A stretch of 64,000 nt of DNA, from assembly GCF_058153355.1 (NCBI RefSeq), contig NZ_CM177019.1, one strand, 5' to 3'. Below the pieces are notes generated by a model that saw only the letters and a program-made list of their open reading frames with translations, did no database searches and was not told where the DNA came from. Of this stretch, positions 3,765 to 46,515 are shown one piece after another. Each line of letters begins with the position of its first letter. Positions within the stretch are counted from its first letter, which is position 1. The position numbers were made by a program, and so were the translations under genes.

Positions 3765-4712
<948 letters not shown>

Positions 4713-9241: not shown

Positions 9242-9553
9242 AAGTATGCACACGGGCAGCACGACGCTGCCCGATTGCTTTCTGGTTCAGAATAATTCGT
9301 CCTACTCATTCTTCTTCCCCTTTTTTAAATACTTTTTCATCTTGTTTCGGACTGTCATGTAATTCGCAAAACAAAGATAAATGTGCTAATCCATCCCATG
9401 GAATATCGCCACAATAAAGCAGGTAATTTTTTGATTTTTACGCCATGATAGAAGTCTGGAAGAAAAAGGCTTTCTGCGATCACAGTCGAGCCGGGCGGGC
9501 CAGGCCAAATGCTAAAATAAGCACAATTTACTGACTCATTTTGAGGTAACGCT

Positions 9554-28889: not shown

Positions 28890-31184
28890 TCATGAATACT
28901 TTTTCGTCCGTCGCGTCGGTGCGGTATTTGCCGGATCATCCGGCCAGACGTGTTTGGGATAACGCCCTTTCATTTCTTTTTGCACCTCGCGATACGCTCC
29001 TTTCCAGAAGGCACTCAAATCTCGTGTGATTTGCAGCGGCCTTTGGGCAGGAGAAAGCAACTCCAGCACCAGCGGCACACGCCCCTGGGCGATCGTCGGA
29101 TTGGTGGCCTCGCCAAACATCTCCTGCATTCTCACCGCCAGCGCGGGCGGGTTATCTTCATGGTAACGAATGGCGATCCGGCTTCCCGTCGGCACAGTGT
29201 AATGCGCAGGCAATTCACTATCCAGACGTTGCTGCATCCCCCAATCAAGTAATCCGCGTAGCGCCTGATAAATATCGAGTGATTTCAGGCCGCGTAGCGA
29301 ATGTACGCCTGCCATATGCGGCAGTAGCCACGTTTCCAGCGTCGCCAACAAACTTTCATCATCAACCGCTGGCCAGTCATATTCTGGCAACCACCTGGCG
29401 GCGCATAACAAACGCAAGCGTAGCTGTTCCGCTTCCGGCGTCCAGTTAAGCACGCTTAAGCCTTTATCACGAACGCCGTTAAGCATCGCCTGATGCAGCT
29501 CGTCTTCTGAAGGCTTCGCCAGCGGCTGCACTTTTACCGTCAGTTGACCAATTTGCAACCGACGCCAGGCTTTCAGCGTACCTTGCGCATCATCCCACTC
29601 CACGGTGTCCGATTGCTGCACCAGCTGCGGACAGCGTTGCACTAATTCATCGATATCGACCGGTAGCGCCAGTAAAATCCGCGCATCCGGCGAGGCGCTA
29701 CCCTGCAATAATAACGGTGCGATAAGCGAACTGTCTGCCTCACCGCCGCGTACGTTTAAGCGCTTTAACAGTTGCTGGCTACGTTGCTGCCAGGCAGGTT
29801 GATTGCGCGAAAACGCCACGCCCAGATCGATATTGCCCATCCGTGGTGGCTCTTCGAGAATAGCGGCAATTTTTGCAGCGGTAGCAGCTTCGTCGTCGCT
29901 CTTTACGCTCACCAGCATTGCCGCTAAACGCGGATCGTTACCCAGCGTCGCCATTTTCTGCCCTTTCGTGCTTAGCCGTTCACCGTCCATCGCCCCCAGC
30001 ATCCGCAACAGGCGTTTCGCGGCCTGTAAATTCACGGCTGGCGGTTGATCCAGCCAGCTCATCTGCGCCGGATCGCTGCATCCCCATTGCAGTAATTCCA
30101 TCAGCAAACCGGAAAGATCGCTTTGTAAGATCTCCGGTTCACTTTGTGCGGCAGCGCGTTCTGCTTGTTCTTTGGCGATTAAATGCAGGCAGATACCCGG
30201 CTCCAGACGCCCGGCACGCCCGGCACGCTGCGTCATCGACGCCTGACTGATTCGCTGAGTAATCAACCGCGTAAGTCCTGTACGCGGATCAAAACGCGCC
30301 ACCCTTTCCTGGGCGCAATCCACCACCAGACGAATACCTTCGATGGTTAAACTGGTTTCAGCAATATTGGTTGCCAGCACCACTTTGCGCATCCCTTCTG
30401 GTGCCGGAAGGATCGCTTTTCGCTGATCGTTCAGCGACAACGCGCCATACAGCGGGCAGAGCAACACATCACTACCGATGCGCGAAGCCAGTTGTTCCTG
30501 AACGCGCTGAATTTCTCCGACACCAGGTAAAAATAACAGTAATGAGCCGCTTTCCTGATGCAGCAATTCGGCGGTGGCAACCGCCACGGCTTCATCAAAA
30601 CGCTGATGAGCGAGCAGCGGTAAATATCGGCGTTCAACCGGAAATGAGCGCCCTTCTGAGATGACGACGGGCGCTTCTGGCAGCATCTGCTGCAAGCGGT
30701 CATTGTCCAGCGTAGCCGACATAATCAGTAGTTTAAGGTCATCACGCAGACCTTGTTGCACATCGAGTAACAGCGCCAACGCCAGATCCGCCTGCAAGCT
30801 GCGCTCATGAAACTCATCGAGGATCACCAATCCAACGCCGCTCAGTTCAGGGTCACGCTGGATCATGCGCGTCAACACGCCTTCGGTAACTACTTCCAGG
30901 CGAGTATTTGGCCCGACACAGTTTTGCGCGCGCATCCGGTAGCCTACCGTATCACCTGTTTTTTCGTTAAGCAGTTCCGCCAGTCGTTGCGCAACGTTAC
31001 GCGCCGCCAGGCGACGCGGCTCCAGCAGGATAATTTTTCCGTTAATGCCGGGATGCGCCAGCAGTTGCAGCGGCAGCCAGGTTGATTTCCCGGCCCCGGT
31101 CGGCGCACTTAATAACACCTGCGGTGCACCATCGAGGGCAGCAAGTAACTCAGGTAAGACGACGGCAACGGGCAACGACGACAC
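28890..31184 (-). CDS. hrpB: ATP-dependent RNA helicase HrpB (DEAH-box), about 45 codons shorter than my recollection of the K-12 protein
   Basis: ORF track frame 28890..31229; start placed at GTG (complement of 31182-31184) with GGAG 9 nt upstream, giving 764 aa VSSLPVAVVLPELLAALDGAPQVLLSAPTGAGKST...; ends RRTKKYS. Confidence 0.9.
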   Translation of the reverse strand: MSSLPVAVVLPELLAALDGAPQVLLSAPTGAGKSTWLPLQLLAHPGINGKIILLEPRRLAARNVAQRLAELLNEKTGDTVGYRMRAQNCVGPNTRLEVVTEGVLTRMIQRDPELSGVGLVILDEFHERSLQADLALALLLDVQQGLRDDLKLLIMSATLDNDRLQQMLPEAPVVISEGRSFPVERRYLPLLAHQRFDEAVAVATAELLHQESGSLLLFLPGVGEIQRVQEQLASRIGSDVLLCPLYGALSLNDQRKAILPAPEGMRKVVLATNIAETSLTIEGIRLVVDCAQERVARFDPRTGLTRLITQRISQASMTQRAGRAGRLEPGICLHLIAKEQAERAAAQSEPEILQSDLSGLLMELLQWGCSDPAQMSWLDQPPAVNLQAAKRLLRMLGAMDGERLSTKGQKMATLGNDPRLAAMLVSVKSDDEAATAAKIAAILEEPPRMGNIDLGVAFSRNQPAWQQRSQQLLKRLNVRGGEADSSLIAPLLLQGSASPDARILLALPVDIDELVQRCPQLVQQSDTVEWDDAQGTLKAWRRLQIGQLTVKVQPLAKPSEDELHQAMLNGVRDKGLSVLNWTPEAEQLRLRLLCAARWLPEYDWPAVDDESLLATLETWLLPHMAGVHSLRGLKSLDIYQALRGLLDWGMQQRLDSELPAHYTVPTGSRIAIRYHEDNPPALAVRMQEMFGEATNPTIAQGRVPLVLELLSPAQRPLQITRDLSAFWKGAYREVQKEMKGRYPKHVWPDDPANTAPTRRTKKYS

Positions 31185-34162: not shown

Positions 34163-35560
34163 ATTTTTACCCGAGTCGCTAATTTTTGCCGCAAGGTGCT
34201 AAGCCGCGAGGAAAGCGAGGCTGAACAGGCAGTCGCCCGTCCACAGGTGACGGTGATCCCGCGTGAGCAGCATGCTATTTCCCGCAAAGATATCAGTGAA
34301 AATGCCCTGAAGGTAATGTACAGGCTCAATAAAGCGGGATACGAAGCCTGGCTGGTTGGCGGCGGCGTGCGCGACCTGTTACTTGGCAAAAAGCCGAAAG
34401 ATTTTGACGTGACTACTAACGCCACGCCAGAGCAAGTGCGCAAACTGTTCCGTAACTGCCGCCTGGTGGGTCGCCGTTTCCGTCTGGCTCATGTGATGTT
34501 TGGCCCGGAGATTATCGAAGTTGCGACCTTCCGGGGACATCACGAAGGTAACGTCAGCGACCGTACGACCTCCCAACGCGGGCAAAACGGCATGTTGCTG
34601 CGCGACAACATTTTCGGTTCCATCGAAGAAGACGCCCAGCGCCGCGATTTCACTATTAATAGTCTGTATTACAGCGTGGCGGATTTTACGGTCCGCGATT
34701 ACGTTGGTGGCATGAAGGATCTGAAAGACGGCGTTATCCGTCTGATTGGTAACCCGGAAACGCGCTACCGTGAAGATCCGGTACGTATGCTGCGCGCGGT
34801 TCGTTTTGCCGCCAAATTGGGCATGCGCATCAGCCCGGAAACCGCAGAACCGATCCCACGCCTGGCAACCCTGCTAAACGATATTCCTCCGGCGCGTTTG
34901 TTTGAAGAATCTCTGAAACTGTTGCAAGCGGGCTACGGTTACGAAACCTATAAACTGCTGTGTGAATACCATCTGTTCCAGCCGCTGTTCCCGACCATTA
35001 CCCGCTACTTTACGGAAAATGGTGACAGTCCAATGGAACGGATCATTGAGCTGGTGCTGAAGAATACTGACACGCGTATTCATAACGATATGCGCGTCAA
35101 CCCGGCGTTCCTGTTTGCCGCCATGTTCTGGTATCCCCTGCTGGAAACAGCACAGAAAATCGCGCAAGAGAGCGGCCTGACTTATCACGACGCTTTCGCG
35201 CTGGCAATGAACGATGTGTTAGACGAAGCCTGCCGTTCACTGGCTATCCCGAAACGGCTAACCACTTTAACCCGTGATATCTGGCAGTTACAGTTGCGCA
35301 TGTCCCGCCGTCAGGGTAAACGCGCATGGAAATTACTCGAACATCCGAAGTTCCGCGCAGCTTATGACCTGCTGGCACTGCGTGCTGAAGTAGAACGCAA
35401 CGCCGAGCTACAACGTCTGGCGAAATGGTGGGGTGAGTTCCAGGTTTCCGCGCCGCCAGACCAAAAAGGGATGCTTAACGAACTGGATGAAGAACCGTCA
35501 CCGCGTCGTCGTACTCGTCGCCCGCGCAGACGTGCGCCGCGCCGTGAGGGCACCGCATGA
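34163..35560 (+). CDS. pcnB: poly(A) polymerase I, with non-canonical AUU initiation codon
   Basis: ORF track frame starts at TTG 34142; the known PcnB N-terminus (M)[21 protein letters not shown] begins at the ATT codon 34163-34165, giving 465 aa; stop overlaps folK start. Confidence 0.9.
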
Positions 35561-36033
35561 CAGTGGCGTATATTGCTATCGGCAGCAATCTGGCCTCTCC
35601 GCTGGAGCAGGTCAATGCTGCCCTGAAGGCAATAGATGACATTCCTGAAAGCCGCATTCTTGCCGTTTCTTCGTTTTACCGCACCCCACCGCTGGGGCCG
35701 CAAGATCAACCCGATTACTTAAACGCAGCCGTGGCGCTGGAAACCTCTCTTACAGCTGAAGAACTCCTCAACCACACACAGCGTATTGAGTTGCAGCAAG
35801 GTCGCGTCCGCAAAGCTGAACGCTGGGGACCGCGCACGCTCGATCTTGATATCATGTTGTTTGGTAATCAGGTCATAAACACTGAGCGCCTGACCGTTCC
35901 GCACTATGATATGAAGAATCGTGGATTTATGTTGTGGCCGCTGTTTGAGATCGCGCCGGAACTGGTGTTTCCTGATGGTGAAACGCTGCAAGCAAGACTC
36001 ACTACTTTCCCTCCCTGCCCACAGCACTGGTAA
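35557..36033 (+). CDS. folK: 2-amino-4-hydroxy-6-hydroxymethyldihydropteridine pyrophosphokinase (HPPK)
   Basis: 158-aa [65 protein letters not shown]...; last ~17 residues ([17 protein letters not shown]) differ from the K-12 tail as I recall it. Confidence 0.93.
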
Positions 36034-36538
36034 ACCACATTTCTGGAAAAGCGTATTGGGTAATGCAATGTTGTATAATATTATTTTATAGTTTCAATGA
36101 ATTAATTCTCTCTCCCCCATCATAAAAATCACAAAAAAACAGCATTAAACATATAATTACGGCAAATATATTTTCATTACCTATATTATCTTTTCTCTTT
36201 ATAAGAGGTTTTTAATGATAATGAACCAATTTATTCTGGGTACTATGCCTCACTCCCGGTATTAGCACTGGATAGCGCTTAACTGGATTCTGTCAGGCTG
36301 GGACGGGGGCAACAAGTGCATACAACGACCAGTCCTTAACGCGTAATTATTAATTTCTACAGCGTATTATCATATTATTTAAACCTGCCCAACCTCACCA
36401 AATACATTCATAAAATGCATAATTATAATAAATCATAAAAATCCATTCACCGAAGATATTTTTCTTTAAAGAGCGTGGCATTTATAATAAGTATTGGTGA
36501 GAAAATTCACCCCCATTAATTTTTATAAGGATATTCCC
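36034..36538 (+). promoter_or_regulatory. AT-rich regulatory region upstream of the yad fimbrial operon (probable H-NS-silenced promoter)
   Basis: 505-bp non-coding stretch with very high AT content and no ORFs, directly upstream of the major fimbrial subunit gene; RBS aagga 8 nt before yadN ATG. Confidence 0.5.
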
Positions 36539-37108
36539 ATGTTAAAAAAAAGTGCTATTGCTACGGCATTAGTGATGTTCACCACTTCTGCCTTCGCGCT
36601 GGATGGCGGTCAATTAGATTTCGCGGGTTTGGTGAGTGACAACACTTGCGTCTTGCACGTCAACGGTGGCGCCCAGGACGGTCAGATTACCCTGCAAACC
36701 GCCACAACCACTGAAGTTAATCAGGCCGGTGTTGTCCAACTTGCCAGCCCTGGCGCAAAACCGGAAGCCTTCTCTATTACGATCGATTGCTCGGACGATC
36801 CACAGGGCGCCTCTGCCAATCTGAGCATGGGTTCCGTGTTCTTCAGCAACAGTCAGGGCACTCTGAACAACGATCTCTCCATTAGCCAGGCGGCTACCGG
36901 GGTCGCGATTGCCATTCACTACCTTACCGATGCCACTACCTACGAACAGATGAGAGTTAACGACAGCACTGATGTTAAAAACCTGCTGTTTACCAACGGC
37001 AAAGCGGTTTACAACTTTAAAGCGTCATATGTAAAACAGGCAGCAACAGTTAACGCAACGGCAGGTTATGTCAAAACCAACGCCGCTTATACAGTGACTT
37101 ACCAGTAA
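36539..37108 (+). CDS. yadN: fimbrial major subunit (Yad fimbriae)
   Basis: ORF track frame 36494..37108 trimmed to ATG 36539, 189 aa MLKKSAIATALVMFTTSAFALDGGQLDFAGLV... with signal peptide and C-terminal YTVTYQ donor strand; allele divergent from K-12. Confidence 0.8.
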   Translation: MLKKSAIATALVMFTTSAFALDGGQLDFAGLVSDNTCVLHVNGGAQDGQITLQTATTTEVNQAGVVQLASPGAKPEAFSITIDCSDDPQGASANLSMGSVFFSNSQGTLNNDLSISQAATGVAIAIHYLTDATTYEQMRVNDSTDVKNLLFTNGKAVYNFKASYVKQAATVNATAGYVKTNAAYTVTYQ

Positions 37109-37165
37109 ATATCTGCGTCACCCAACAGCCCAAGGGCTGTTGGGTCACTCAATAAGGATAGTGTT

Positions 37166-37909
37166 ATGACCAGGATGTGTCAGTTTATTGTTTCCACTGC
37201 TTTCGTCGCATCGACAGCCGTTTTCAGCCTCACCGCGCAAGCAGATATTGTGCTTTCCGGTACGCGCATTATTTATAATGCCGACCAGAAAGACGTCACA
37301 TTGCGCATGGAAAACAAAGGTGCCCGCCCATTATTAGTTCAGACCTGGATTGATACCGGCAGCGAGAATGCCGACCCCAGCACATTGAAAGTGCCTTTTA
37401 CCGTGACGCCGCCGGTTTCCCGCGTTGATGGTAAAAAAGGCCAAACGGTTAAAATTGCCTGGAACGCCAGCCAGACCCTTCCAGCCGATCGCGAAAGCGT
37501 TTATTGGTTCAATGCGCTGGAAGTTCCCCCCAAGATGAACGATGCCGATGCCAAGGGAAAAAACATTCTGCAATTGGCTTTCCGTACCCGTATCAAGCTG
37601 TTCTATCGCCCAACCGGCCTGGCGGGTAACCCGGCTGATGCACCAAAACAGTTAACCTGGCGTCTCCAGTCTTCAGCCGGAAAAGTGGTGCTGCAGGCAA
37701 CAAACCCAACGCCTTATCACGTCTCATTCAGCAGTATTACCCTTGCCTCAGGCGGTAATAAATATACCGTGGAAAGCAGTATGGTCGAGCCCAAAAGCAG
37801 TGCGGAAATGGTGGTAAAAGGCGCTCCCCGTTCTGTGTCTGGCGCAACAGTTGAGTACTCAGCCATTAATGATTTTGGCGGTGGCATTGACGGCAAAGTC
37901 AAACTTTGA
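37166..37909 (+). CDS. yadV: periplasmic fimbrial chaperone (PapD-like)
   Basis: 247-aa ORF with signal peptide and chaperone motifs (IVLSGTRIIYNADQKDVTLRMENKGARPLLVQTW, LAFRTRIKLFYRP). Confidence 0.85.
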   Translation: MTRMCQFIVSTAFVASTAVFSLTAQADIVLSGTRIIYNADQKDVTLRMENKGARPLLVQTWIDTGSENADPSTLKVPFTVTPPVSRVDGKKGQTVKIAWNASQTLPADRESVYWFNALEVPPKMNDADAKGKNILQLAFRTRIKLFYRPTGLAGNPADAPKQLTWRLQSSAGKVVLQATNPTPYHVSFSSITLASGGNKYTVESSMVEPKSSAEMVVKGAPRSVSGATVEYSAINDFGGGIDGKVKL

Positions 37910-37941
37910 TGCCCACAGACGAGATCGGCTGAGATCGTACA

Positions 37942-40548
37942 ATGAAGATCCCCCACGATGGCAAAAGAATTCAACGATCGCCGCTCGCTTGCCTGATTGC
38001 GTGTAGCCTGCTGCCCTGCACACAAAATGTGTGGGGGGCAAACGAGACCGTTGAGTTTGATAACACGTTCCTGATGGGCGCAGGCGCCAGGGATATTGAT
38101 GTCAATCGTTATAGCAAAGGTAACGCAACATTACCGGGGCGCTATGACGTTAGCGTGTTTATTAATAACCAGGCCAGCGCCAATCTGAAAATCGAGTTTA
38201 TTGAATTAGACCCTGAACACGCTGCTCAGCCCTGTATCTCCACCAACACATTATTACAACTGCATATTCGCCAGCCAGAAAAGTTAGCGGATAACGCAAT
38301 TTTGCAAAAACGCGAAAACGCTGTGCAGGATTGCCTGAACGTAGAGGTTGCTATTCCGCAATCGAGCGTCGCTTACAATAGCAACGATCAGCGGCTTGAT
38401 ATCAGCATGCCGCAAATCTGGCTGCAGAGAACCTATGCCAACTATGTCGATCCGTCGCTGTGGGATGAAGGCATCAATGCCGCAATGCTCTCTTACACCC
38501 TTAACGGCTGGCGCAGTGAATCCCCCAATCAAACCACAGAAACCAGCTACGCCGGACTGATGGGCGGTATCAATTTATGGGGATGGCATTTTCGCTCACA
38601 TGGTAACTATTCGTGGGACAAAGAAGACGGCGGCAGTTTTGAATTTCAGGATAAATATCTGCAACGCGATATCGCCGCGCTCCGCTCTCAGCTGGTAATG
38701 GGTGAAACCAATACCACAGGAGAAACCTTCGACTCGGTGCCTATTCGCGGGCTGCGACTCTATAGCGAAAGCCGCATGTTGCCCCCTACGCTGGCGTCGT
38801 ATGCGCCCGTTATCCGTGGCGTGGCAAACTCTAACGCGAAAGTCACGATCACCCAAAACGGTTATAAAATTTATGAAACGACCGTGCCGCCAGGGCCATT
38901 CGCGATTGACGATCTCACCCCGGCAGGGTTCGGCGCCGATCTCGAGGTGACCATCACCGAATCGGACGGTTCAAAGCGTACGTTTAGTCAGGCTTATTCA
39001 TCGGTGATCCAGATGATGCGTCCCGGCGTGGGCAAATGGGATATCAGCGCCGGTGAGGTCAATAAAGAGGAACTCCAGGATAAACCGAACCTGCTGCAAG
39101 GAACCTACTATTACGGGTTGAGCAACACCTTCACCGGCTACACCGGCCTGCAAATGACCGATAACGGCTACTGGGCCGGTTTATTAGGGTTGGGGGTGAA
39201 TACATCGCTGGGCGCTTTCTCCTTCGATGTTACTCAGTCTCATGCCGAAATTCCTGACGATAAAACCTATAGTGGACAGAGTTACCGTGTTTCATGGAAC
39301 AAATATTTCGCGCCTACCGAAACCTCACTCAACATTGCCGCCTATCGCTACTCCACTGAAAACTATCTGGGGCTGAACGACGCGTTGACGCTGATTAATT
39401 CTGCCAACCATCCTGATGAAGAGGGCTATTCGGGGATTGTCAGTTATGCACGCATGAAAAATCAGTTCAGCGTTAGCATTAATCAAACGTTAAAAAGTGA
39501 TGAACGTGACTATGGCTCTTTCTATGTGAATGGCACATGGACAGATTACTGGGTAACCAACTCATCACAGAGCAGTTTTGCCTTTGGCTACAGCAATGCC
39601 TTTAACTGGGCGAGCTACAGCGTCAGCCTGCAACGGACATACGATGAAGACAATAAGAAGGATGACTCGATTTATCTGAGTGTGACCATTCCGCTTGATA
39701 AACTGCTTGGCCGCGATAGCCATCAGGGCGGGTTCAAAACCCTGAATACCAGCGTTAACAGCGATATGAAAGGTAGCTCGCAATATAACACCAATGCCTC
39801 GGGCTACAGCCAGGATAATCGCTGGAGTTACAGCGTGAATACCGCCTATAACGTGCAGAAAAACAGCGACAGCCTGAAAAGTATCAGCGGTTATACCAGC
39901 TATGAGTCGCCGTGGGGAACATTTTCAGGCTCAGCCTCCACCAGCAGCGATCGCTCACGTCAGTATGGGCTCAGCACCGATGGCGGTTTTGTACTCCACC
40001 GCCACGGTCTGACCTTCAGTAACGACAGTTTTACCGACTCTGACACGTTGGCGCTGATCAACGCCCCGGGTGCAAAAGGCGCGCGCATTAACTTTGGTAA
40101 CAGCACCATCGACCGTTTTGGCTACGGCGTGACCAGTTCACTGTCACCGTACCGGGAAAATACCGTCGCGCTCGATGTTAACGATCTGGATAACGACGTG
40201 GAGCTCAAAAACACCAGTAGCGTCGCCATTCCGCGCCAGGGTTCCGTCATTTTCAGCCACTTTGACACCGATACCGGGCGCTCCGCCATTCTCAATTTAC
40301 TGCGTAGCAACAATCAGCCCGTGCCGTTTGCTTCCGATATTACCGACGAAAAAGGGACCTCTATCGGGACCGTTGGCCAGGGCAGTCAGGCATTTGTACG
40401 CGGCATTGCCGACAGCGGTGAACTGACGGTCACCTGGTATGAGAAAAATAGTCGCCAGCAGTGCCGTATTCATTATCAGATACCGTCATCACCCACCATG
40501 ACCGGTAAAACTATCGTACTCAACGCCGTGCCATGCACCCAGCAATAA
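37942..40548 (+). CDS. htrE: fimbrial outer membrane usher protein
   Basis: 868-aa ORF; usher hallmarks (FDNTFLMGAGARDIDVNRYSKGN, RGLRLYSESRMLPPTLASYAPVIRGVANSNAKVTITQNGYKIYETTVPPGPFAIDDL). Confidence 0.88.
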   Translation: MKIPHDGKRIQRSPLACLIACSLLPCTQNVWGANETVEFDNTFLMGAGARDIDVNRYSKGNATLPGRYDVSVFINNQASANLKIEFIELDPEHAAQPCISTNTLLQLHIRQPEKLADNAILQKRENAVQDCLNVEVAIPQSSVAYNSNDQRLDISMPQIWLQRTYANYVDPSLWDEGINAAMLSYTLNGWRSESPNQTTETSYAGLMGGINLWGWHFRSHGNYSWDKEDGGSFEFQDKYLQRDIAALRSQLVMGETNTTGETFDSVPIRGLRLYSESRMLPPTLASYAPVIRGVANSNAKVTITQNGYKIYETTVPPGPFAIDDLTPAGFGADLEVTITESDGSKRTFSQAYSSVIQMMRPGVGKWDISAGEVNKEELQDKPNLLQGTYYYGLSNTFTGYTGLQMTDNGYWAGLLGLGVNTSLGAFSFDVTQSHAEIPDDKTYSGQSYRVSWNKYFAPTETSLNIAAYRYSTENYLGLNDALTLINSANHPDEEGYSGIVSYARMKNQFSVSINQTLKSDERDYGSFYVNGTWTDYWVTNSSQSSFAFGYSNAFNWASYSVSLQRTYDEDNKKDDSIYLSVTIPLDKLLGRDSHQGGFKTLNTSVNSDMKGSSQYNTNASGYSQDNRWSYSVNTAYNVQKNSDSLKSISGYTSYESPWGTFSGSASTSSDRSRQYGLSTDGGFVLHRHGLTFSNDSFTDSDTLALINAPGAKGARINFGNSTIDRFGYGVTSSLSPYRENTVALDVNDLDNDVELKNTSSVAIPRQGSVIFSHFDTDTGRSAILNLLRSNNQPVPFASDITDEKGTSIGTVGQGSQAFVRGIADSGELTVTWYEKNSRQQCRIHYQIPSSPTMTGKTIVLNAVPCTQQ

Positions 40549-40564
40549 TGTTCCAGGAGAGGAA

Positions 40565-41134
40565 ATGAGAGCTTTTTTACTACCGCCCCTGCTGCTGACG
40601 TCGCTTTGTCTGCGCCCCGCACTGGCAACCGATCTTTCGGTGAACTTTACCGCGACCATCAAAGAGACGACCTGTGCCATGACGCTCAACGCATTGAATG
40701 GGGCCAGTATCAGCGGTGATACCGCAACGAATAGCTATTATCTGGATCTGCCTGATATGGGCGTTTCGGACATTGTGAATAAATCGTCAATGTCAGAGGC
40801 TAATTTTAAAATCCTTCCCAGCAATTGTAATAACTATATTTCCGGCCTGTCGATGACTCTCAATGGCGCAGTCAGCAGCTATACAGATTCGTTAATCGGT
40901 AATGACCAGACCGTTTCCGGACATACCAACTATGTTGGTCTTGGTATTAAACGTATGAACACTGATGAAAACCTCCGCTTTAAACTCAACGGTAGCCAGC
41001 GAATCACCTGGACGAATGATGAAATAAGTAATGGATTAGATCTCACAGCCATGCTTCGTCAGACCACCACCGGGAATACGATCACCACAGGCCAATTCCA
41101 GGCCAAAGTAACTTTCGTCTTTACCTACCAATAG
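40565..41134 (+). CDS. yadM: fimbrial minor subunit
   Basis: 189-aa ORF with signal peptide and C-terminal VTFVFTYQ. Confidence 0.8.
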   Translation: MRAFLLPPLLLTSLCLRPALATDLSVNFTATIKETTCAMTLNALNGASISGDTATNSYYLDLPDMGVSDIVNKSSMSEANFKILPSNCNNYISGLSMTLNGAVSSYTDSLIGNDQTVSGHTNYVGLGIKRMNTDENLRFKLNGSQRITWTNDEISNGLDLTAMLRQTTTGNTITTGQFQAKVTFVFTYQ

Positions 41135-41145
41135 CAGGTTTGTTT

Positions 41146-41742
41146 ATGAATTATCACAATATAACCTTTGTCTTGCTGCTGTGCTTTGGATATATCTCCA
41201 TCGGCCACGCCGCCAGTAGCTCTATGGACGTTACGGTACGCGCTAAGGTTACTGCCAGTACCTGCACGGCGGAATTACGCAATGCGCAGGATCAGCAAGC
41301 CACCACCATCGCTATTGGCGATGTCTATCTCAACGAGCTTTCCGCTAAATCGAAATACCAAAACTTCAGCCTGGTGTTTTCAAACTGCGAAGGGTTAGCA
41401 AAGGATCAGGCAAAAGTTGTGCTTTCTGCACAGACGGGCTGCGATGGTGCTTCCAGTACCGGTGGCGGATACCGTAATGCACTGACGACAGCGGACGATG
41501 ATGCGGCAACCGGTGTTGCAGTTGAAGTGTGGACGACCAACCAGCCAGAAGGTCAGGGCAGCATTCAGCTTAATTGTAAAACCAAACCAACCAGTATTGT
41601 CGATTTAGCCACGGCTACAGGCTCGAATATTGTCCACTGGCCGCTCAGTGCCCGAATTGTTGTCGCATCGGATAATACCATCGCGGATGTCCGTGCAGGT
41701 CAATTCTCCACCAATGCTATCTTTTCTGTAACCTATGAGTAG
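41146..41742 (+). CDS. yadL: fimbrial minor subunit
   Basis: ATG at 41146 (track frame begins at TTG 41140); signal peptide, C-terminal AIFSVTYE. Confidence 0.8.
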   Translation: MNYHNITFVLLLCFGYISIGHAASSSMDVTVRAKVTASTCTAELRNAQDQQATTIAIGDVYLNELSAKSKYQNFSLVFSNCEGLAKDQAKVVLSAQTGCDGASSTGGGYRNALTTADDDAATGVAVEVWTTNQPEGQGSIQLNCKTKPTSIVDLATATGSNIVHWPLSARIVVASDNTIADVRAGQFSTNAIFSVTYE

Positions 41743-42315
41743 ATGATGATGAAAACAGTTATCTACATGATTGCGTTTTGGTTTTCTTACAACGCCATTG
41801 CAGCCAGTACCAATATTAATATGACTGCCAATATCATCAGCACCAGTTGCCGGGTCACGCTCGACAATAATGGAAATATTGATTTAGGCACAGTGGATTA
41901 TAGCTATCTGAATAATAATACCTCTGTCGATCGCGTCTATTCTGGCGGGCACCCCTTTTATATTACCGTCAGCGACTGCGCGCAGGTAGCGGGGAAAAAT
42001 CCGGCCCACCTGACCGTCAGCTTTACGCCTTTGGCAGGCACCCTTGCGCCAACCAACCTCCAGGTATTCGCCAACCAGCAGGTCAACGGTGCAAAAAATG
42101 TCGGCGTGGTTATTTTATCGACCGAGGACGCTCAGCATATTTTCAATGTGCTCGACACGCGTGGTCAACCGCAAAGTATTTACCCCGTGACGCCCGAAAC
42201 GATCGCTAACGCGACATACCACTTTTACGCTCGGATGCAAAAAATTGACCCTACACAAGCGGTAACCAGCGGCGTGGTAAAAGCGAGCGTATTTGTTGGG
42301 GTTTATTATGAATAA
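41743..42315 (+). CDS. yadK: fimbrial minor subunit
   Basis: 190-aa ORF MMMKTVIYMIAFWFSYNAIAA..., C-terminal VFVGVYYE; three consecutive ATG codons make the exact start ambiguous. Confidence 0.8.
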   Translation: MMMKTVIYMIAFWFSYNAIAASTNINMTANIISTSCRVTLDNNGNIDLGTVDYSYLNNNTSVDRVYSGGHPFYITVSDCAQVAGKNPAHLTVSFTPLAGTLAPTNLQVFANQQVNGAKNVGVVILSTEDAQHIFNVLDTRGQPQSIYPVTPETIANATYHFYARMQKIDPTQAVTSGVVKASVFVGVYYE

Positions 42316-42341
42316 TCTATATCACTCTCAAGGATGAAGAG

Positions 42342-43574
42342 ATGAACACGCAATTTTTTTCCCGGTCTAAACGGTGGTGTCGAACACTGCTGGTTCTGTT
42401 GTCCTTCTATTCAGGCTGCCTGCACTCTGCCAACACAATTATCGTCGGCAACAAAACCTATTCAGGCTCGACGGAAAGTAATTCCGGTCCACAGGGGGAT
42501 GGCAGCGCAACGGCAACGTTCAGCACAGGAGCAAACCAGATAGTGATCCCAACCTCCGCGGGGCTACAAAGTAGCAACATCAGGCTCCAGTTGGGCTGGG
42601 TGGATACGGGTTCATTAGGCAATGCCCTGATTTACTGTGGAGCTGGTGGAATGGGAACGCCTTTAACCCTGGAGAGCCATTTCGTTGATGCTCTGGTGAG
42701 TGCAGATGGCCACAAGCTCTTTAAAACCAATGTGCAGGGTCTCTACTTCAGGATGCACATGTACAGTGTAAGCTCATTCAAAACAACATCCAGCAGCGAT
42801 ATCTATATCGGTGACCCCCCCCAACAAACACTGACCTTAACGCCCGAGAATTCCGTATGCGTCGCCGATCTGGGGAAATACACAGCCATAGGCGGTCTGG
42901 TCAGTAAAATTGATATTGAGTTTTATAATGATGGAACCTTCAATCCCAATACGACAGGTAGCATCGCTTTACTGAGCAACAAGGGATATCACTATTCAGT
43001 GACAAATGCAGCGCCTGGTGGTGCATTGACCTCGCACTATATTTATCAGACGTTCAATATGGGTAATGTGACGCTTAGCTCGCCTACCTGTACCTCAGCG
43101 GTCGTTTCGGGGAATACAGTTAAGGGAGATACCGTCAGTCTCGGTGAATATAACCCCAAAGATATCCTTGATGGCGTTGACGGCATCCCTTTTGGTATAG
43201 CACTAAAGAACTGTTACCGGGTCACCAATATCGAGGTCAAAATGACTACCGGCGCCCCTGCAATGTCGGCTGCGTTATTGGGTAATTCGTTAACCGCCGA
43301 GGCCAATGCCGCCAACGGCGTAGGCGTGGAGATAAAAGGAAAATCGAACTCACATTATGCCGAGGTTGTTCTTCACCCTAATGACACCCATTCTGTTTAT
43401 AAAGCCTATGTCGATACAGCTGACACGTCGAATGGCATTATTGGTTCAGGCACATCGGGAACCGCAGCAAATCAAACGCTAAATTTTGTTGCCACCCTCA
43501 AACAAGACAACAATCAACAAATCAGAGGCGGGGATTTCAAAGCGACCGCCGTTTTCTCTATCACCTACCCATGA
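42342..43574 (+). CDS. yadC: fimbrial tip adhesin-like protein
   Basis: 410-aa ORF, signal peptide, two-domain size typical of tip adhesins, C-terminal AVFSITYP pilin fold; last gene of operon. Confidence 0.8.
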   Translation: MNTQFFSRSKRWCRTLLVLLSFYSGCLHSANTIIVGNKTYSGSTESNSGPQGDGSATATFSTGANQIVIPTSAGLQSSNIRLQLGWVDTGSLGNALIYCGAGGMGTPLTLESHFVDALVSADGHKLFKTNVQGLYFRMHMYSVSSFKTTSSSDIYIGDPPQQTLTLTPENSVCVADLGKYTAIGGLVSKIDIEFYNDGTFNPNTTGSIALLSNKGYHYSVTNAAPGGALTSHYIYQTFNMGNVTLSSPTCTSAVVSGNTVKGDTVSLGEYNPKDILDGVDGIPFGIALKNCYRVTNIEVKMTTGAPAMSAALLGNSLTAEANAANGVGVEIKGKSNSHYAEVVLHPNDTHSVYKAYVDTADTSNGIIGSGTSGTAANQTLNFVATLKQDNNQQIRGGDFKATAVFSITYP

Positions 43575-43583
43575 GCCCCGCTA

Positions 43584-43608
43584 CCGGCAGGCCCCCCTGC
43601 CGGTTTTG
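43584..43608 (+). terminator. intrinsic terminator of the yad operon
   Basis: ccggcagg-cccc-cctgccgg hairpin followed by TTTTG, 10 nt after yadC stop. Confidence 0.75.
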
Positions 43609-43692
43609 ACCATAAAGGGCTAACACTCATCACTGACATCCCCTACAATGCGCCAATCCTATAGATAACACTTATGACTAACAGGGGTTATG

Positions 43693-44487
43693 ATGAAACC
43701 GACCACCATCTCCTTGCTGAACAAATACAAACAAGAAAAAAAACGCTTCGCCACTATTACCGCTTACGACTACAGCTTCGCCAAATTGTTTGCTGAAGAA
43801 GGACTTAACGTGATGTTGGTTGGCGATTCGCTGGGCATGACTGTTCAGGGGCACGACTCCACACTCCCGGTAACCGTTCAAGATATCGCCTACCACACTG
43901 CTGCCGTACGTCGTGGCGCACCGAATTGCCTGCTGCTGGCTGACCTGCCGTTTATGGCGTATTCCACCCCGGAACAGGCCTTTGAAAATGCCGCCACAGT
44001 AATGCGTGCCGGAGCCAATATGGTCAAAATTGAAGGCGGCGCATGGTTGGTTGAGACGGTACGAATGCTGACTGAACGTGCAGTTCCGGTGTGTGGTCAT
44101 TTAGGTTTAACCCCACAGTCAGTGAATATTTTTGGCGGCTACAAAGTACAAGGGCGTGGCGATGAAGCGGGCGATCAACTGCTCAGCGATGCGTTAGCCT
44201 TAGAAGCCGCTGGTGCACAGTTGCTGGTGCTGGAATGCGTGCCGGTTGAACTGGCGAAACGCATTACTGAAGCGCTGGCGATTCCGGTAATCGGTATTGG
44301 CGCGGGCAACGTCACCGACGGGCAAATCCTCGTGATGCACGACGCGTTCGGTATTACCGGCGGCCATATCCCTAAATTTGCAAAAAATTTCCTTGCTGAA
44401 ACGGGCGACATCCGCGCAGCAGTGCGTCAGTATATAGCTGAAGTGGAGTCCGGGGTTTATCCGGGCGAAGAACACAGTTTCCATTAA
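43693..44487 (+). CDS. panB: 3-methyl-2-oxobutanoate hydroxymethyltransferase
   Basis: 264 aa [55 protein letters not shown]... (second ATG of track ORF). Confidence 0.96.
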
Positions 44488-44498
44488 GGAGTCACGTT

Positions 44499-45350
44499 GT
44501 GTTAATTATCGAAACCCTGCCGTTGCTGCGTCAGCAAATTCGCCGCCTGCGAATGGAAGGCAAACGCGTGGCGCTGGTGCCTACTATGGGTAACCTGCAC
44601 GATGGTCATATGAAGCTGGTCGACGAAGCCAAAGCCCGCGCCGATGTGGTCGTCGTCAGTATTTTCGTTAACCCAATGCAGTTTGACCGCCCGGAAGATC
44701 TGGCTCGCTACCCACGCACCTTGCAGGAAGACTGCGAGAAGCTAAACAAACGTAAAGTGGATCTGGTTTTCGCTCCCTCGGTAAAAGAGATCTATCCGAA
44801 CGGTACAGAAACCCACACCTATGTCGATGTTCCAGGCCTTTCCACCATGCTGGAAGGTGCCAGCCGTCCAGGACATTTTCGCGGCGTATCGACCATCGTC
44901 AGCAAACTGTTCAACCTGGTCCAGCCGGACATCGCCTGCTTCGGTGAAAAGGATTTTCAGCAACTGGCGCTGATCCGCAAAATGGTTGCCGACATGGGCT
45001 TTGATATTGAGATTGTCGGAGTGCCGATTATGCGCGCTAAAGACGGTCTGGCGCTCAGTTCCCGTAACGGCTATCTGACGGCGGAACAACGTAAAATTGC
45101 GCCGGGTCTGTACAAGGTCTTAAGTTCAATTGCCGACAAATTGCAGGCTGGCGAACGGGATCTCGATGAAATTATTGCTATTGCCGGGCAAGAACTGAAT
45201 GAAAAAGGTTTCCGTTCCGATGATATTCAGATTCGCGATGCCGACACCTTGCTGGAAATCGCTGAAAACAGCAAACGAGCTGTGATTCTGGTAGCCGCCT
45301 GGCTTGGCGATGCTCGCCTGATCGACAACAAAATGGTCGAACTGGCGTAA
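44499..45350 (+). CDS. panC: pantothenate synthetase
   Basis: 283-aa ORF (GTG start at 44499) [41 protein letters not shown]... Confidence 0.96.
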
Positions 45351-45570: not shown

Positions 45571-46515
45571 TTAGTTAATTAGCTTATCAATCTCAGCAAG
45601 AGGTAAATTTGCCATCTCTGCAACGTCTTCCCGAGACATTCCTTTACTCAGAAGACGCAGGGCGAATTCTTGCCTTTCCTCCTGTCTTCCCAGCTGAATC
45701 CCCTTCTCAATCCCCTTCTCAATCCCCTTCTCAATCCCCTTCTCAATTCCCTTCTCAATTCCCTTCTCTTCAAACCACTGCGCCAACGTCATCATAGACT
45801 CCCCTCCCGTTTCCCTGTCTCTCACCACACCATAAAACAAATCCGCTTGTTCAGTATGACCGCGTTGCAGCATATAGTTTTGCATGGCAACTAACTGACT
45901 TCCGCTAGTGTACCCTTCGTCAATCAGCGTGACCAGTTGCTCCAGCAATAACATTAAGTCGCGCTGGCGAATATGTTTTTGCAACAGTTCGAGAATCGCA
46001 ATCCGCCGATGTTGCATGATTTCGTCATCCGGTGTGATAGTGATATCCACCAGCGGGAAAGGACTGTTATAGACGCGTCGCGCCAGCTCCGGCGAGTAAA
46101 ACATATCAAACCAGCACATTGAGAGTGGATAAGGCGTGGCCTCGCCCTGATAAAACAAAATCGGCACCACCAGCGGCAGCTTATCGTGGTCAGCCTCCAG
46201 ATGCCGGTGCATGGCGGCAATAGAATAACGCATCATACGAAACGCCATTTTTTTGTCCGGCTTGCTTTGGTGTTCAATCACAACATGTAGATAGCCCGTA
46301 TTACCCTGCATTTGCACGGAATAGAGCACGTCAGTGCTGTGCCCTTTCAGGCTTTCTTCAATAAAACTCCCCGACTCAAGATGCAGCGTGTCGAGGTCAC
46401 ACAGTTCGCGTAGCTCCGCTGGCAAATGGATATCCAGAAAGTCGCGAGCCGTTTCCACGTGCATTAAAAATTGTTTAAACACCGCATCATGCGGTGTGGT
46501 ACTCGGTGCATCCAT
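45571..46515 (-). CDS. rpnC: recombination-promoting nuclease Rpn family (YhgA-like, PD-(D/E)XK transposase_31)
   Basis: 314-aa ORF MDAPSTTPHDAVFKQFLMHVETARDFLDIHLPAELRELCDLDTLHLESGSFIEESLKGHSTDVLYSVQMQ...; position between panC and panD as for yadD/rpnC; carries an (EKGI)6 repeat. Confidence 0.88.
   Translation of the reverse strand: MDAPSTTPHDAVFKQFLMHVETARDFLDIHLPAELRELCDLDTLHLESGSFIEESLKGHSTDVLYSVQMQGNTGYLHVVIEHQSKPDKKMAFRMMRYSIAAMHRHLEADHDKLPLVVPILFYQGEATPYPLSMCWFDMFYSPELARRVYNSPFPLVDITITPDDEIMQHRRIAILELLQKHIRQRDLMLLLEQLVTLIDEGYTSGSQLVAMQNYMLQRGHTEQADLFYGVVRDRETGGESMMTLAQWFEEKGIEKGIEKGIEKGIEKGIEKGIQLGRQEERQEFALRLLSKGMSREDVAEMANLPLAEIDKLIN
45697..45768 (-). repeat. in-frame 12-bp tandem repeat (6 copies) inside rpnC
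   Basis: aatccccttctc x4 then aattcccttctc x2 on plus strand, encoding EKGIEKGIEKGIEKGIEKGIEKGI on the minus strand. Confidence 0.95.

Follow-up and report, generated by a model that had tools for sequence, protein, structure and literature searches.

The stretch of DNA analysed here, which we call the window, comprises 64,000 nucleotides of contig NZ_CM177019.1 (assembly GCF_058153355.1) and carries, between folK and panB, a chaperone-usher fimbrial operon that resembles the yad operon of Escherichia coli K-12. From 34,163 to 45,350 the gene order, all on the + strand, is pcnB, folK, seven fimbrial genes, panB and panC. The equivalent stretch of K-12 lies at 147.9-159.1 kb and has the same arrangement in the opposite orientation. 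The genes for the major subunit, the chaperone, the usher, three minor subunits and the adhesin follow one another as in K-12 yad, and both this order and the location between folK and panB are those of the Yad/Sta fimbrial type. All seven open reading frames are intact, are full length when compared with their homologues and begin with hydrophobic, signal-like N-termini. The features of the locus are as follows.

35557-36033, + strand: folK (HPPK), 158 residues, with the Pfam HPPK domain at residues 5-134; codons 1 to ~143 are core
From ~35,985, + strand: the last ~15 codons of folK, part of the variable block, with cassette-specific tails
36034-36538, + strand: AT-rich intergenic region, presumed regulatory, 505 bp, GC 0.36, 5' of the yadN-like gene
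36539-37108, + strand: yadN-like major subunit, 189 residues; Pfam Fimbrial (PF00419); best NCBIfam model StaA, below cut-off
37166-37909, + strand: yadV-like periplasmic chaperone, 247 residues from the first ATG; PapD_N and PapD_C
37175, + strand: RefSeq-style start of the yadV-like chaperone, giving 244 residues
37942-40548, + strand: htrE-like outer-membrane usher, 868 residues; PapC_N, Usher and PapC_C
40565-41134, + strand: yadM-like minor subunit, 189 residues; Pfam Fimbrial; best NCBIfam model StaD, below cut-off
41146-41742, + strand: yadL-like minor subunit, 198 residues; best NCBIfam models YadL and StaE, below cut-offs
41743-42315, + strand: yadK-like minor subunit, 190 residues; Pfam Fimbrial; NCBIfam NF011794 at 206 bits (cut-off 132)
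42342-43574, + strand: yadC-like predicted two-domain tip adhesin, 410 residues; lectin-like domain ~30-240, pilin domain ~245-410
43583-43607, + strand: terminator-like hairpin 3' of yadC, a 9-bp GC-rich stem followed by UUUU, found by folding
43608-43692, + strand: yadC-panB intergenic haplotype, the right end of the variable block, which includes panB promoter-like sites

From usher phylogeny and position, Wurpel et al. (2013, PMC3559732) classed Yad as a core-associated fimbrial type that keeps to this locus and corresponds to Sta of Salmonella. The domain content of the operon in the window agrees with this type. The usher is covered over its full 868 residues by PapC_N, Usher and PapC_C (Pfam E-values 4e-161, 2e-41 and 7e-21), and it scores 1361 bits against the HtrE-type equivalog model NF007337 of NCBIfam, where the cut-off is 830 and the next usher model reaches 550 bits. 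By these model scores and by its nearest homologues, rather than by a tree, it groups with HtrE/StaC. The chaperone matches PapD_N (2e-43) and PapD_C (1e-19), and exceeds the cut-off of the YadV-type equivalog model NF007398 (369 bits against 285). The pilin fold (PF00419) is found in the YadN-, YadM- and YadK-like proteins and in the C-terminal domain of the YadC-like protein, where the match is confined to residues 246-409. The YadL-like protein has no Pfam match above the curated cut-off, and its best NCBIfam match, to YadL/StaE (1.6e-49), also lies below cut-off.

A sequence search of the PDB found no relatives of the YadC-like protein. Its AlphaFold model, built from 27 homologues with a mean predicted confidence (pLDDT) of 84.5, has two beta-rich domains. 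When this predicted structure was compared with known tip adhesins by a Foldseek search of the PDB, it matched the full-length two-domain adhesins FimH, FocH, LpfD, CupB6 and PapG, with E-values of 1e-8 to 1e-5 at 10-14% identity. The protein is thus predicted to be a two-domain tip adhesin with a lectin and a pilin domain. With its cassette, the window adds a member to the Yad/Sta fimbrial type that is new and uncharacterised.

To define the borders of the operon region, the whole 64-kb window was compared by BLAST with K-12 124-200 kb. Apart from one large block, the two run colinear at 94-98% identity; this block is the sole large one without a K-12 counterpart in the 64 kb, in line with the initial annotation, which regarded it as the only accessory-type block of the window. 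Homology to K-12, at about 94% nucleotide identity in pcnB-folK, is lost at 35,989 (folK codon ~144) and regained at 43,693, the start codon of panB. In the base-level alignment, identity to K-12 falls apart within GGTGAAACGCTG, at ~35,981-35,990 and ~15 codons 5' of the folK stop, so that the start of the block had been placed accurately at 35,980. The end proposed at 43,608 coincides with the end of the hairpin and U-tract behind yadC, but the non-homology extends further, to the start of panB at 43,693. On this side, 11 aligned loci fall into two intergenic haplotypes, which merge precisely at the ATG of panB. The hairpin at 43583-43607 (-21.9 kcal/mol, z = -2.5) is conserved in the intergenic haplotype of the window type, and falls below the T-run criterion of the terminator scanner. 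Promoter-like sites lie in the yadC-panB intergenic stretch at 43620-43649 and 43665-43694.

Within the block, alignment to K-12 as DNA is confined to parts of the genes for the chaperone and the usher, at ~65% identity, which is far from the >97% nucleotide identity that would speak for a K-12-like operon. The region behind folK, described as 505 bp and AT-rich in the initial annotation, has exactly this length and a GC content of 0.36, and is unalignable to K-12. As had been proposed, the seven genes form a Yad-like operon in the K-12 order that has diverged from K-12: the proteins are 38-59% identical (YadN 55%, YadV 53.5%, HtrE 59%, YadM 39%, YadL 38%, YadK 41%, YadC 40%). The flanking proteins PcnB, PanB and PanC are 99.4%, 97.3% and 98.2% identical to those of K-12. 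FolK is 89% identical, with almost all differences in its tail; it has 158 residues, compared with 159 in K-12 ending FPDGEMLRQILHTRAFDKLNKW, and the alignment breaks in the 3' end of the gene, which bears out the claim that its C-terminus is unlike that of K-12. The yadN-like product is 99.5% identical to that of strain EC42405.

The fimbrial genes at this site were then compared at the protein level among 12 representative loci. The ushers at folK-panB form three groups, between which usher identity is 54-61% and adhesin identity 24-42%. Family 1 contains K-12, E20, 2013C-4282 and ABU 83972 (usher 84-88% within the family, with SCAID as an outlier at 75%); family 2 contains O157, GmM062 and 2017-02-2CC (68-81%); and family 3 contains the window, EC42405 and N96 (97-99%, and 83% for ET201). 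Synonymous divergence (dS) is saturated between families. The initial annotation had described the operon as a divergent allele; it is indeed a deeply divergent Yad-type cluster, but with saturated dS, three families and ushers at 54-61% identity, the term understates the depth of the divergence.

The FolK proteins agree up to ...VFPDG and then differ by cassette in 12 of 12 cases, for example EMLRQILHTRAFDKLNKW in K-12, ETLREILTSLAVLQPAIWY in O157 and ETLATRLTNLNALCPQRW in ET201. Because all 12 cassettes diverge directly after ...FPDG of FolK, they share the folK junction as the left edge of the polymorphic block. Between the window and K-12, dS is 0.31 for folK codons 1-142 and 2.98 for codons 143-158; this jump suggests that the folK tail has a different and much older genealogy, beyond what relaxed constraint would give. 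A crossover inside folK had been proposed for this genome, and folK does contain a junction in its 3' end, which is, however, not private to this genome.

A homologous operon of seven or six genes occupies the same site in all 15 other loci that were inspected, including those of E. albertii and Pseudocitrobacter vendiensis, and an empty folK-panB site was seen in none of these 15. Not all cassettes at the locus are intact, since the family 2 chaperone of 2017-02-2CC is annotated as frameshifted (locus L011, 14758-15496). On the basis of these comparisons, at least three ancient and mutually very divergent cassette families segregate at folK-panB. The block at 35,985-43,692 is, with high probability, a complete and functional-looking operon of the Yad/Sta type at its canonical site, and one of these at least three exchangeable ancient families.

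How common the cassette is was assessed by megablast of positions 35,400-43,800 against 5,426 complete E. coli genomes. The part covering folK and pcnB was found in all genomes and the operon in 14 of the 5,426, so that few E. coli genomes have the cassette of the window. Of these carriers, eleven (e.g. EC42405, Z0117EC0005 and R32_14_1F) match it at 97-98% nucleotide identity, and the other three, N96 and two MFDS strains, at ~92%. A more sensitive search with the usher gene, at a coverage of at least 80%, gave 114 genomes, made up of these 14 and ~100 ET201-like genomes at 77-80% nucleotide identity; the rest lie at 65-67%. By megablast against the same genomes, the K-12 usher gene is present in ~3,900-4,000 and the O157 usher gene in ~570-610.

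The best matches to the window among complete RefSeq E. coli genomes, which include EC42405 and 2013C-4282, reach 98.0-98.4% identity and none is higher. Both strains are listed as complete genomes of Escherichia cryptic clade I in a study that gives the average nucleotide identity as >98.3% between members of the clade and >95.9% between the clade and E. coli sensu stricto (PMC10100065). Judging from these similarities, cryptic clade I is the most likely source of the window. A YadC protein identical to that of the window is encoded in assembly GCA_015332025.1. The genes pcnB, folK and panB are 88-93% identical to K-12 at the nucleotide level, and the same divergence is found in clade I strains with other cassettes. 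Since the genome is clade I-like and not K-12-like, part of its apparent divergence from K-12 is lineage background. We had considered that the divergence of pcnB, folK and panB might reflect hitch-hiking with the cassette; this was ruled out, as clade I strains with the other two families are equally diverged. The clade I strains 2013C-4282 (locus L010, 1-3737) and 2017-02-2CC (locus L011, 1-3492) carry a further chaperone-usher operon adjoining mrcB; the mrcB stretch of the window is colinear with K-12 and has no extra operon, which would make this another fimbrial presence/absence polymorphism of the lineage.

That cassettes are exchanged at folK-panB is suggested by strains in which flanks and cassette tell different stories. 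The genomes of 2013C-4282 and 2017-02-2CC are 99-100% identical to the window at 30.5-33 kb and again from panB on. Despite these matching flanks, they hold cassettes of family 1 and family 2, respectively, and a zone of 95-97% identity to the window lies on the left side at 33.5-36.0 kb. In ET201, pcnB and folK match K-12 at 97-100% as far as the tail, behind which a family 3 cassette follows. The initial annotation had suggested allelic replacement by recombination. Whole-cassette replacement does happen at the locus, as these three strains indicate, but it is not a one-off event. Replacement by homologous recombination at this locus is thus supported by the patterns of identity.

A finer pattern appears within family 3. 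Compared with the window, N96 and the MFDS strains are 98-100% identical in the flanks and 93-97% over most of the operon, and only 53-73% at the nucleotide level across yadK and the lectin domain of yadC; their YadC is 60% identical in amino acids. This drop in identity at yadK and yadC within one family suggests that the adhesin end is a second-order mosaic. The lectin domain of YadC has been described as hypervariable, with recombination between phylogroups (PMC13245861).

Relatives outside E. coli were sought by scanning one genome per GTDB species with exact peptide patterns from the usher of the window, an approach that finds very close relatives only. The scan returned a single locus, in the type strain of P. 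vendiensis, CPO20170097T (NZ_CALSBS010000004.1), whose usher is 97% identical to that of the window. The flanks of this locus are ~80% identical to E. coli. Over ~8 kb, from just 5' of yadN to the start of panC, P. vendiensis is 99-100% identical at the nucleotide level to E. coli N96 (locus L017, 5579-14385, in P. vendiensis; locus L003, 9117-17929, in N96), and its PanB is identical in every amino acid to the E. coli-type PanB of N96. Its FolK tail is its own, and it possesses an additional major-subunit gene in tandem (locus L017, 4832-5404) with 70% identity to YadN. As PanB of P. vendiensis is of the E. coli type, the transfer would have gone outward from E. coli. The similarity is most simply explained by a recent replacement of ~8 kb at a homologous site between genera, from E. 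coli to Pseudocitrobacter.

E. albertii also has family 3 at the same site, with a FolK tail identical to that of the window bar one residue, an usher at 89% and an adhesin at 67% identity. Its structural genes are 76-87% identical to those of the window at the nucleotide level. Between the two, dS is 0.45-2.8 in the operon (1.08 for htrE) and 0.40-0.66 in the flanking genes, and because dS of the operon lies above that of the flanks, the cassette is unlikely to be a recent import from E. albertii. The upstream region of 505 bp is 96-98% identical to clade I relatives and E. albertii. At window positions 36000-36400, comprising the folK tail and upstream region, identity to E. albertii is 96%, above both the core flanks (86-93%) and the operon genes (76-87%). 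This hints at a regulatory module, formed by the folK tail and upstream region, that may be separately exchanged or strongly constrained. Other homologues are found in Escherichia sp. 94.0001 (99%), [Enterobacter] lignolyticus (usher 83%) and Pseudocitrobacter faecalis (adhesin 61%), while the ushers of Salmonella and Citrobacter (62-63%) and HtrE of K-12 (60%) are less similar to the usher of the window. By sequence similarity, the family of the window is present in Pseudocitrobacter and Pluralibacter besides E. albertii.

We propose that folK-panB is the site of a long-lived, trans-species cassette polymorphism, in which at least three families predate the split of E. coli and E. albertii and move as units across lineages and genera together with their own FolK tails, the family of the window being the rarest in E. 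coli. In our judgement, the case for this full proposal is evenly balanced. Several points weigh against the reading of the block as a functional-looking cassette that is exchanged as a unit. The family counts were obtained from coverage thresholds of megablast and blastn and not from a phylogeny. Of the 14 carriers, 11 match at 97-98% nucleotide identity, and the six carriers with examined flanks are 98-100% identical to the window there as well; inheritance within this subgroup may simply be vertical. Positive selection left no gene-wide signal, the ratio of nonsynonymous to synonymous divergence (dN/dS) being <1 everywhere, and promoter-like sites in the 505 bp upstream are no more frequent than in shuffled sequences.

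A different history would be a recent import into this genome, by homologous recombination from E. albertii, Pseudocitrobacter or Pluralibacter, of a cassette alien to the E. coli complex. That E. albertii has the same family and FolK tail, that its folK tail and upstream region (96%) exceed the neighbouring flanks (86-93%) in identity, and that P. vendiensis (97%) and [Enterobacter] lignolyticus (83%) have homologous ushers are in its favour. We nevertheless consider such an import unlikely: the structural genes at 76-87% and dS of 1.08 in htrE against 0.40-0.66 in the flanks make the divergence from E. albertii too old, the E. coli-type panB of P. vendiensis points to a transfer outward from E. 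coli, and the cassette is present at 97-98% in at least 11 genomes. Diversifying selection is known to act on fimbrial adhesins, and a yad operon of the K-12 type could have diverged rapidly in situ under positive or diversifying selection, without replacement. Consistent with this idea, the lectin domain of yadC is the most variable part and has the highest dN/dS among close alleles (0.14-0.29). Its hypervariability has also been reported (PMC13245861). However, synonymous sites are saturated between families, dN/dS is 0.05-0.3 in all genes, the non-coding upstream region is unalignable, and identity steps from ~90-100% to unalignable within a few codons. Moreover, strains of one background hold cassettes of different families, and one family recurs in different backgrounds, which already contradicts divergence in place; we find it scarcely credible.

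It could also be argued that the operon is a decaying, non-functional cryptic remnant whose divergence reflects relaxed constraint. The yad operon of K-12 is cryptic under laboratory conditions (PMC3559732), the relative 2017-02-2CC has a frameshifted chaperone, and no strong promoter was found. Decay is nonetheless very unlikely, given seven intact reading frames with signal-peptide-like N-termini and an usher and chaperone above the curated equivalog cut-offs. Furthermore, dN/dS is well below 1 against close and distant relatives: it is 0.03-0.3 for all genes in all comparisons with unsaturated dS, and highest in the lectin half of YadC (0.14-0.29). Finally, an AT-rich, accessory-looking block between core genes, with a GC content of 36% at its left edge, might be a genomic island that a mobile element inserted between folK and panB. 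Scans for tRNA genes and Rfam families at 35,500-44,000 found none; long direct or inverted repeats at the flanks and integrase-, transposase- or insertion sequence (IS)-sized frames are likewise missing, the only frames beyond the seven genes being short and antisense. These negative results argue that the block is not a mobile island, and with a homologous operon at the same site in 15 of 15 other loci and no empty site seen, we give insertion by a mobile element next to no credence.

On the highly probable reading of the block as one of at least three exchangeable families, whole cassettes pass between genomes through homologous recombination in the conserved genes at either side, which are pcnB/folK (left) and panB/panC (right). 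Each cassette brings its own FolK C-terminal tail of ~15 residues, the variable block beginning after folK codon ~143, and mosaicism within a family is concentrated in yadK and the lectin domain of yadC. Under the proposed trans-species polymorphism, frequency-dependent selection from hosts, phages or immunity plausibly keeps the families circulating.

How the operon would work can be suggested from its family. The subunits would be exported to the periplasm and bound there by the PapD-like chaperone, and the usher would polymerise them by donor-strand exchange. The resulting fibre would consist of the YadN-like major subunit, three minor or adaptor subunits and, at its tip, the YadC-like adhesin, whose N-terminal lectin domain is expected to set the binding specificity. 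In the laboratory, the AT-rich stretch upstream probably gives low expression or is silenced, as has been reported for other cryptic E. coli fimbriae. Short repeats at chance level occur in this region of 505 bp, and no inverted repeats resembling an invertible switch were found in it. With YadN at 55% and YadC at 40% identity to K-12, it is a reasonable inference, already drawn in the initial annotation, that the fimbria is antigenically distinct.

Compared with Yad of K-12 and uropathogenic E. coli (UPEC), the operon of the window shares the folK-panB site, the order and orientation of the seven genes, the domain content and a two-domain tip adhesin. It differs in its proteins, which are 38-59% identical, in an upstream region that cannot be aligned and in its FolK tail. 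Xylose has been reported as a ligand of YadC (PMC13245861), as has annexin A2 (PMC6921372); neither ligand can be assumed for the lectin domain of the window. The cassettes of E. albertii, ET201-like strains, Pseudocitrobacter and [Enterobacter] lignolyticus are of the same family as the window, with ushers at 83-97% identity, and the FolK tails of ET201 and P. vendiensis, of the ...CPQRW and ...CPALW type, are related to that of the window. They are unlike it in YadC, which is 59-67% identical overall with strongly different lectin domains. Family 2 of O157:H7 and Salmonella Sta have the same locus and operon architecture, and form one Yad/Sta type with the window according to Wurpel et al., but are more distant in usher (54-55% for O157, 55-63% for Salmonella) and adhesin (27-29% for O157). 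Like the fim and rfb clusters, which are recombination-hot regions of E. coli (PMC4866539), folK-panB is a fixed site at which the haplotypes of a surface structure are deeply divergent and undergo homologous exchange through conserved flanks. Unlike them, its variable block extends into the coding sequence of the housekeeping gene folK. In the open-access literature searched, we found no description of this extension, of cassette-specific FolK tails or of the Pseudocitrobacter transfer.

In a study of 2026, the minor subunits and the lectin domain of YadC were reported to vary strongly, two B2 subtypes were distinguished, and genomes were scored as Yad-positive at identity and length of at least 80% to HtrE of EC958; phylogroup E and most of D were scored as lacking Yad (PMC13245861). 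The usher of the window is 58-60% identical to five ushers of the K-12 family, including those of K-12 and the B2 strain ABU 83972, and, judged from these rather than from EC958 itself, falls far short of the 80% threshold, so that the cassette would count as Yad-negative. O157:H7 carries a complete seven-gene operon at folK-panB (locus L012, 3945-10909), whose usher is ~60% identical to HtrE of K-12. As this family 2 operon is complete, part of the reported absence of Yad is likely divergence beyond the 80% threshold. Surveys of Yad by identity threshold can therefore misread divergent cassettes at the same site as absent. If the trans-species polymorphism is true, scores of D and E strains as Yad-negative miscount divergent cassettes, and the housekeeping protein FolK is chimeric at its border with the cassette.

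The cassette adds an uncharacterised adhesin type to E. albertii and to clade I, which has been described as an emerging source of pathogens of the intestine (PMC10100065). Both the major subunit and the tip adhesin of the cassette are probably distinct in serology, and the adhesin may bind a different ligand. The near-identical 8-kb segment of N96 and P. vendiensis suggests that homologous replacement works across flanks of ~80% identity. The boundary in folK could serve as a simple marker of cassette family by polymerase chain reaction or sequencing, and offers a natural experiment on how much change the C-terminus of FolK tolerates. We would like to stress that this is a surface-structure polymorphism of the ordinary kind, with an unusually neat boundary inside folK, and that it leaves the understanding of how such fimbriae work unchanged. 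Its more interesting sides are population-genetic, namely families that are deep and span species, a housekeeping gene that is chimeric where it meets the cassette, and replacement from one genus to another.

Apart from the fimbrial locus, three smaller differences were noted in the window. In hrpB, 135 nt (45 codons, in frame) are missing at 29718; they are present in six of six aligned relatives, and K-12 hrpB has extra sequence at the same point. The BLAST segments overlap by 12 nt at this gap, which suggests a deletion between short direct repeats. K-12 184,245-185,088, containing the phosphodiesterase gene yaeI, has no counterpart in the window, where ~128 bp (~9276-9404) lie between the homologous blocks. 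In the rpnC region, a 24-nt tandem duplication of AATCCCCTTCTC at 45697-45720 is absent from six of six aligned relatives.

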